The position numbers and the translations under genes were made by a program. A DNA stretch of 64,000 nt from Escherichia coli (lineage in GTDB: Bacteria; Pseudomonadota; Gammaproteobacteria; Enterobacterales; Enterobacteriaceae), in the NCBI RefSeq assembly GCF_050920415.1, contig NZ_CP169309.1. One strand, 5' to 3'. This document shows, piece by piece, positions 22,089 through 22,620 of the stretch. The notes beneath the pieces are model-generated. The model was given only the letters and a program-made list of their open reading frames with translations, was not told the origin of the DNA and ran no database searches. The first letter of the stretch is position 1. Each line of letters starts with the position of its first letter.

Positions 22089-22620
22089 CTCAGGAAGGAA
22101 AAAGTGGCTTTCGCGCACCTTAGGTCAGACAAGGTGTCCGGGAAAGTCAATGGGAAGAGAAAAATTTGTTAAAAATAACTGTTCGGCGATTTCTTGAACG
22201 GCAGAATAGTATGGGTAAATTGATATAGATGGTTTATTAATCTTGTTGCTAATGATTGCCAAAATTGATCTAAGCACGAGTCATCACATAATCTGATGTA
22301 TCAGCTGTGGTCAATATATAAGCGAATGTAAGCGATTGTTGAGTCGAAATGGTTGTTTTATATTCGTTTGTTGTTAAATACCAAGCCAATTTGTTACTTT
22401 TGCATATATTATAAGAATATTATTTATTACTTTAATTCAGTTTAAATATAACCGATTTACCTTAAGGTTATTAATTTGAATTATGATACACTGATATTAT
22501 TCATCAAGTAATAACAAAATAGTCATTGCACCGAGTTATACAATTTACAAAAGAAAGATACCCCATATCACATAATGCGATTAAATACGCCTTCTCATAG
22601 AAAAGGATGGTTAGGGTAAT

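Follow-up and report, generated by a model that had tools for sequence, protein, structure and literature searches.

The 423-bp interval at positions 22198-22620 of the 64,000-nucleotide stretch of Escherichia coli DNA that we analyzed (hereafter, the window) is most probably the upstream regulatory region of the adhesin gene yfaL, an AT-rich platform for H-NS that keeps this gene off. We put the probability of that reading at about 0.7, and our analysis gives the same figure for its holding in the present strain. An H-NS-coated segment at this place is already known from the K-12 literature. What is mildly new is a sharp boundary of conservation at one end of the interval, and the retention of composition and length by DNA whose sequence is not conserved.

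The position of the interval is evident from the local annotation, which was taken from E. coli MFDS1022581 (RefSeq; 99.97% identical over 12.7 kb) and K-12 BW25113, both of which have the gene order inaA, yfaE, nrdB, nrdA, ypaB, yfaL, ubiG, gyrA. It is the yfaL-proximal part of a 693-bp spacer (21928-22620) bounded by two divergent genes: nrdA (minus strand, 19642-21927, with its ATG at 21927), which encodes the class Ia ribonucleotide reductase alpha subunit, and yfaL (plus strand, with its ATG at 22621). The nrdA-proximal remainder of the spacer (21928-22197, minus strand) is strongly conserved and comprises the nrdA 5′ UTR, promoter and upstream regulatory region, within which lie DnaA boxes (22071-22090) and a HusR box (22126-22141). 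The nrdA promoter is overlapped by ypaB (22054-22197, plus strand), a small annotated ORF of 47 aa, and position 22198 directly follows its end.

The nrdA promoter core (window 22050-22164; L003:3001-3115) is also copied in 235 E. coli plasmid records, at about 78% identity over 115 bp, and 29 bp containing both DnaA boxes and a TTGCAA hexamer are identical in these copies. On one example plasmid the copy is situated just upstream of a gene for a DNA polymerase III theta homologue and beside a HumD-family gene, which suggests that a P1-type phage-plasmid has borrowed DnaA-box control of the nrdA kind.

Base composition and predicted shape of the interval

How unusual is the composition of the interval? 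Its GC content is 0.293 against 0.509 for the whole window (standard deviation of 423-bp frames, 0.054), and frames with GC this low make up only 0.16% of the 423-bp frames. The lowest value that any 423-bp frame of the window reaches, 0.284, belongs to 22154-22576, and among 100-bp frames the lowest (GC 0.17) starts at 22388. The original prediction, that the leader upstream of yfaL is extremely AT-rich, is thus borne out; windowed GC had been set beforehand as the test capable of refuting it, and on computation the value was unusually low. Both strings quoted in its support are present, ttattaatcttgttgc at 22236-22251 and tatattataagaatattatttattac at 22406-22431.

The accompanying claim of many A/T tracts holds for mixed runs of A and T only, of which there are nine of at least 8 bp, but not for homopolymers, as A or T runs of at least four number six versus the 7.5 ± 2.5 expected from composition. 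Nor did we detect helical phasing of the A/T runs at 10-11 bp, power at periods of 10-11.5 bp being below the simulation mean, and phased A-tracts were rejected as the basis of the AT-richness on both grounds. In excess are TpA steps, which occur at 128 per kb in 22198-22620 versus 45 per kb in the window, a 2.8-fold difference. Curvature, whose prediction had been proposed as a check, was computed with a wedge model. This gave a sharp local peak but not a strongly curved segment: the mean of 7.7 degrees per turn (window, 6.1 ± 0.9) is only in the top 5.6% of frames, whereas the predicted peak of 21 degrees per turn at 22255-22275 stands at the 99.9th percentile of the window and coincides with the −35 element of the predicted promoter at 22265-22292 (see below). 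By the same model the most AT-rich part, 22420-22510, is predicted to be straight.

The window has other very AT-rich stretches, at 15142-17016, 50626-51500 and 57194-57341. The 423-bp GC minima in the first two regions are 0.291 (16360-16782) and 0.317 (50832-51254), and a 100-bp frame with GC of 0.17 also begins at 57203. The highest predicted curvature peaks in the window, 16362-16382 and 16662-16682, lie inside the stretch 15142-17016.

The K-12 counterpart, H-NS binding and promoter-like sites

For K-12 MG1655, Table 1 of Panyukov & Ozoline 2013 (PMC3661553) lists 78 promoter islands, one of which is the 534-bp island 2342143_534, yfaL(-)/ypaB(-); it is foreign according to three of five predictors and carries the H-NS mark “A,” meaning that every ChIP study compared there (Grainger, Oshima, Kahramanoglou) had it bound. 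Shimada et al. (PMC3946193, Table 1) marked the K-12 yfaL<>nrdA spacer “HNS” from genomic SELEX and reported an RpoD-holoenzyme SELEX peak in it. With K-12 gene coordinates checked, the island corresponds to about 22138-22669 of the window, so the whole of 22198-22620 is contained within it. In placing K-12 positions on the window, we took the offset between U00096.2 and U00096.3 to be 1978.

The K-12 island and the present interval agree in orthologous position, in length (424 and 423 bp, respectively), in GC content (0.288 and 0.293), in having the same best promoter hexamers and in the density of promoter-like signals. They differ in haplotype class, the two sequences diverging by 11.3% over their full length and by 13.5% in the 288 bp nearest yfaL, and in that the downstream gene here is a deletion pseudogene; the binding of H-NS and RNA polymerase is that measured in K-12. 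The proposal that the leader is an H-NS site therefore finds its support by proxy, in the occupancy documented for the orthologous K-12 segment by the ChIP sets and genomic SELEX. The two alleles differ by 11%, yet the base composition on which binding depends has stayed the same. Our analysis shows the composition and position of the segment, its correspondence to the K-12 region and its pattern of conservation; H-NS occupancy in this strain, promoter use and silencing are inferred.

The wording of the original prediction went further in calling such regions nucleation sites, and for nucleation, as distinct from coating, the motif content offers no support. Using the published H-NS high-affinity motif, a tCGATAAATT-like 10-mer, we found no match in 22198-22620 with up to one mismatch and two with up to two mismatches, against 1.44 ± 1.2 expected from composition-matched simulations. 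The regulatory regions of proU and bgl are targets of xenogeneic silencing by H-NS. Targets of H-NS silencing also lie upstream of genes for surface proteins, an example being Shigella icsA (PMC3185424). The yfaL leader resembles icsA, proU and bgl in that the DNA from a promoter downstream is rich in AT and in TpA steps, in the predicted bend near that promoter, and also in that yfaL needed an inserted promoter for study. It differs from them in having no high-affinity nucleation motif, mapped H-NS footprint or known counter-silencer, and in that the GC content of yfaL as a whole is genome-like (0.514).

Consensus-type promoter-like sites number 17 over 20 kb, and five of them fall in 22198-22620, giving 11.8 per kb in the segment versus 0.6 per kb in its surroundings (12 in the other 19.6 kb). 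By this count, which serves as a proxy for PlatProm, the segment has the dense potential start points over at least 300 bp that characterize promoter islands. Local shuffles of the 901-bp region around the segment yielded 3.4 ± 1.7 such sites versus the five observed, and we therefore consider the density to be a product of composition. The promoter TTGATC-16-CATAAT has been assigned to yfaL in K-12 (PMC3946193, Table 1), and our promoter scan found identical hexamers at 22265-22292 (plus strand), a predicted sigma-70 promoter directed toward yfaL. If it were used, the 5′ UTR of yfaL would be about 320 nt; in the sources consulted we found neither an experimental transcription start for yfaL nor a report of yfaL expression in hns mutants. 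A second −10-like hexamer at 22571-22576 (plus strand; CATAAT here, TATAAT in K-12) belongs to a 15-nt direct repeat shared with 22283-22297 and, having no good −35, is a candidate only. Repeats in the segment are limited to short two- or three-copy matches, as expected for AT-rich DNA, and the small ORFs inside it (20-39 aa) lie in hypervariable sequence and are unannotated in any genome compared. In K-12, GadX ChIP-exo peaks were reported at the yfaL start codon (about 22605-22666) with no change in expression, and yfaL phenotypes and YfaL function were studied using an inserted constitutive promoter.

How might such a segment act? Its TpA-rich, 29% GC composition would turn it into a platform that H-NS occupies and to which RNA polymerase also binds, non-productively, as in the published promoter islands, and the H-NS platform would keep the adhesin gene off under ordinary conditions. 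The functional core is probably the sigma-70 promoter at 22265-22292, sitting on the predicted bend, and the approximately 290 bp from promoter to start codon would act via composition rather than specific sequence. With its target gene already a deletion pseudogene, the region in this strain would be a leftover, most likely still coated by H-NS, that may continue to hold down spurious transcription and to affect the nrdAB promoter next to it.

The state of yfaL

The original prediction that yfaL is disrupted is correct in that the gene is broken, but the cause is an internal deletion of about 2.5 kb and not an inserted element. Relative to intact alleles, yfaL nt ~972-3513 are deleted, leaving a 5′ ORF of 327 aa (22621-23604, plus strand), which encodes the signal peptide and the start of the passenger domain and ends at the deletion junction, along with a degenerate 3′ piece (23610-23847, plus strand) from the end of the beta-barrel region, which abuts ubiG. 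This 3′ remnant, about 240 bp of barrel-coding sequence, has a further 54-bp deletion and is 83-86% identical to K-12 yfaL nt 3514-3623 and 3677-3809. Disruption by an insertion sequence was rejected because the minus-strand ORF that adjoins the 3′ remnant (23848-24618, 256 aa) is ubiG and the deletion in yfaL is internal. In the near-identical genome MFDS1022581, yfaL is annotated as an incomplete pseudogene. The gene is AT-rich only in its first kilobase and leader.

Only five of 5,426 complete E. coli genomes have this deletion structure, and the identical junction in all five carriers points to a single deletion event. An extra 11-bp frameshift in the 5′ remnant of three of the five indicates that this remnant is undergoing ongoing decay. 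The carrier 2017-02-2CC has the same junction and a 3′ remnant that is 100% identical, together with a 5′ remnant and leader that are 7% diverged, a pattern which suggests that recombination took place after the deletion and that the deleted allele was moved or patched.

It had also been argued that the leader is retained although the gene is disrupted. This carries no functional weight because the deletion is internal and rare, the AT-rich 5′ kilobase of the pseudogene has been retained equally, and the spacer is near-universal, with at least 80% of it kept in 5,422 of the 5,426 complete genomes.

Different changes at the start of yfaL were seen in other genomes. In E. coli S931B an IS1-family element (L015:1337-2037) located about 25 bp upstream of the yfaL start-codon position separates the leader from yfaL. 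In other Escherichia species (L017, L043, L046 and L029; window 22600-22640) yfaL starts 9 nt upstream of the E. coli start, with the N-terminus MNKKRIVF... or MQSKKWILF... versus MRIIFLRK... in E. coli, and in the divergent genome SCPM-O-B-8794 neither start position carries an ATG.

Conservation of the leader and its competing explanations

The leader differs from K-12 in a manner quite unlike the rest of the spacer. Four-fold-site divergence from K-12 is 6.9% for ubiG, 7.5% for gyrA and 9.6% for nrdA, and divergence is 1.9% in the nrdA-proximal spacer (21928-22197) and 11.3% in 22198-22620. Within the latter, a block at 22216-22332, which holds the predicted yfaL promoter and the predicted curvature peak, diverges by 3.4%, and the remaining 288 bp (22333-22620), the hypervariable and most AT-rich part of the leader (GC 0.271), by 13.5%. 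Differences from AT to GC and from GC to AT are balanced against K-12 (18 vs. 21). Nucleotide diversity (pi), computed over 14 E. coli alleles, is 0.017 in the nrdA-proximal spacer, 0.029 in the block, 0.034 at nrdA third codon positions, 0.103 in 22333-22620, which is three times the nrdA value, and 0.147 at yfaL third codon positions. Alleles of the yfaL-proximal leader form four deep haplotype classes that differ by up to 19%, among strains in which nrdA differs by no more than 2%, and yet leader GC stays at 0.28-0.30 across the 14 alleles. Recombination breakpoints fall near the yfaL start codon: in strain R32_14_1F the leader is 99.8% identical and the 5′ part of yfaL 90.5%. YfaL has been named among the mosaic, hypervariable outer-membrane proteins of E. 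coli (PMC12175518), and the leader resembles the yfaL 5′ end in its raised diversity and its deep classes of allele, although that study covers protein sequences whereas the non-coding extension described here (about 290 bp) comes from 14 alleles.

Two further observations concern the nrd genes. The four-fold-site divergence of nrdB (18446-19576) from K-12 is 19%, with no amino-acid change, which is about twice that of nrdA, ubiG and gyrA, and nrdB may have been imported by recombination. In one haplotype class (L009, L010 and L015, that is, Eco889, O2:K2:H1 and S931B) ypaB is unannotated and the first 31 nt beside the nrdA ATG were left unaligned by megablast, so that the nrdA 5′ UTR differs there.

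To look for signs of a horizontal origin in outgroups, species-representative genomes were scanned once with the nrdA DnaA-box 20-mer, which produced 63 hits, only four of them Escherichia loci and the rest unrelated DnaA-box pairs. The four lineages are E. albertii, E. whittamii, Escherichia sp. E1V33 and a divergent genome labelled E. coli, and all have yfaL and its leader at the same site. yfaL is not known to occur in Salmonella or Citrobacter. In all four, identity is 94.6-96.6% up to about 22197. BLAST homology then ends at about 22200 in three and near 22269 in E. albertii, and it is regained no earlier than within yfaL, at 77-82%. When the leader was aligned globally, identity was 45-59% for 22198-22332 and 46-50% for 22333-22620, with GC nevertheless at 0.24-0.34, and at 0.24-0.28 in 22333-22620. 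The four lineages, at 46-59% identity, have a leader GC of 0.24-0.29. There are only three invariant islands: AAAnTTGAT at the −35, a core that is invariant in five Escherichia lineages, TGTAA near 22328, and TTTACAA at 22544-22550. The −10 hexamer of the predicted promoter showed no conservation outside E. coli in the lineages compared. Across Escherichia, then, the leader keeps its composition and length and not its sequence, and the pattern of conservation leads us to conclude that it evolves with mosaic yfaL and not with nrdA.

Could the segment be no more than an unconstrained spacer that drifted to the AT-rich equilibrium of mutation bias, to which H-NS binds passively and which persists for want of a deletion? 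This is the main rival to a regulatory H-NS platform. It fits the hypervariability of the leader, which is also what unconstrained DNA is expected to show. In its favour are also diversity in 22333-22620 well above that at nrdA third codon positions, between-species identity near random, no motif, RNA family or stable fold found, a density of promoter-like sites that composition explains, and a neighbouring pseudogene remnant that has likewise been retained. It does not fit the constancy of length and composition. In the Escherichia lineages compared, 414-427 nt separate the ypaB stop from the yfaL start, even though their sequences are only about 50% identical and the alignments need 20-26 gap columns, GC is held within 0.24-0.30 everywhere, and to these must be added the three short islands invariant across species, the 117-bp block conserved within E. 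coli and the 5,422 of 5,426 genomes that keep most of the spacer. We consider drift alone unlikely.

A different possibility is that the segment chiefly serves the essential nrdAB operon, as distant upstream DNA through which H-NS, FNR or a bend would control it, and survives the loss of yfaL for that reason. nrdAB is FNR-repressed, reviews name H-NS among its repressors, the center of a K-12 FNR ChIP-seq peak assigned to nrdAB (2,342,585, about window 22228) falls inside the segment and within the block 22216-22332, and this block is conserved within E. coli. However, only FNR-like sites with three mismatches were found under that peak, and the FNR ChIP-seq paper itself places the nrdA start site outside the peak region. 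In addition, the conservation linked to nrdA breaks off sharply near 22200 in each Escherichia lineage, and the diversity of the segment tracks yfaL, not nrdA. The block 22216-22332 may have a role centred on nrdAB, which for the rest is contradicted by the break in conservation; as an account of the segment as a whole we judge it very unlikely. That the segment is a structured 5′ leader RNA of yfaL acting after initiation (a riboswitch, thermosensor or sRNA target), to which the approximately 320-nt untranslated leader expected from the predicted promoter and a 12-nt inverted repeat bracketing the start codon (22582-22593 and 22642-22653) would lend themselves, is already weakly refuted and extremely improbable, given that a scan of 21700-22900 gave no Rfam match at E-values up to 1, the folding energy of the putative 352-nt leader RNA is no better than that of shuffles (z −1.05), and the sequence is hypervariable, with the K-12 difference in the inverted repeat adding a mismatch and no compensation.

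A regulatory H-NS platform upstream of yfaL is thus the reading that we prefer, and in that form the segment matters little beyond its correct annotation as the counterpart of a described, H-NS-coated K-12 island beside a cryptic adhesin gene. Here nature nevertheless offers a clean instance of non-coding sequence that changes more quickly than synonymous sites and yet holds on to its base composition and length, and the ypaB stop codon divides it sharply from the nrdAB control region, which is strongly conserved. This makes the locus well suited to asking whether selection on H-NS platforms acts on composition and nothing else. Whether essential promoters are shielded by such platforms from silenced neighbours is a second question that it could help to answer. 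We might go so far as to speculate, though we think it unlikely, that selection has acted on the composition and length of the leader rather than on its sequence, and has kept it in all Escherichia as a platform or buffer for H-NS of about 420 bp. If this were true, the buffer would separate the conserved nrdAB promoter from a fast-evolving, recombining adhesin gene, would set the end of the silenced domain and possibly feed H-NS control into nrdAB, and its role would explain why the leader persists after yfaL has been lost.
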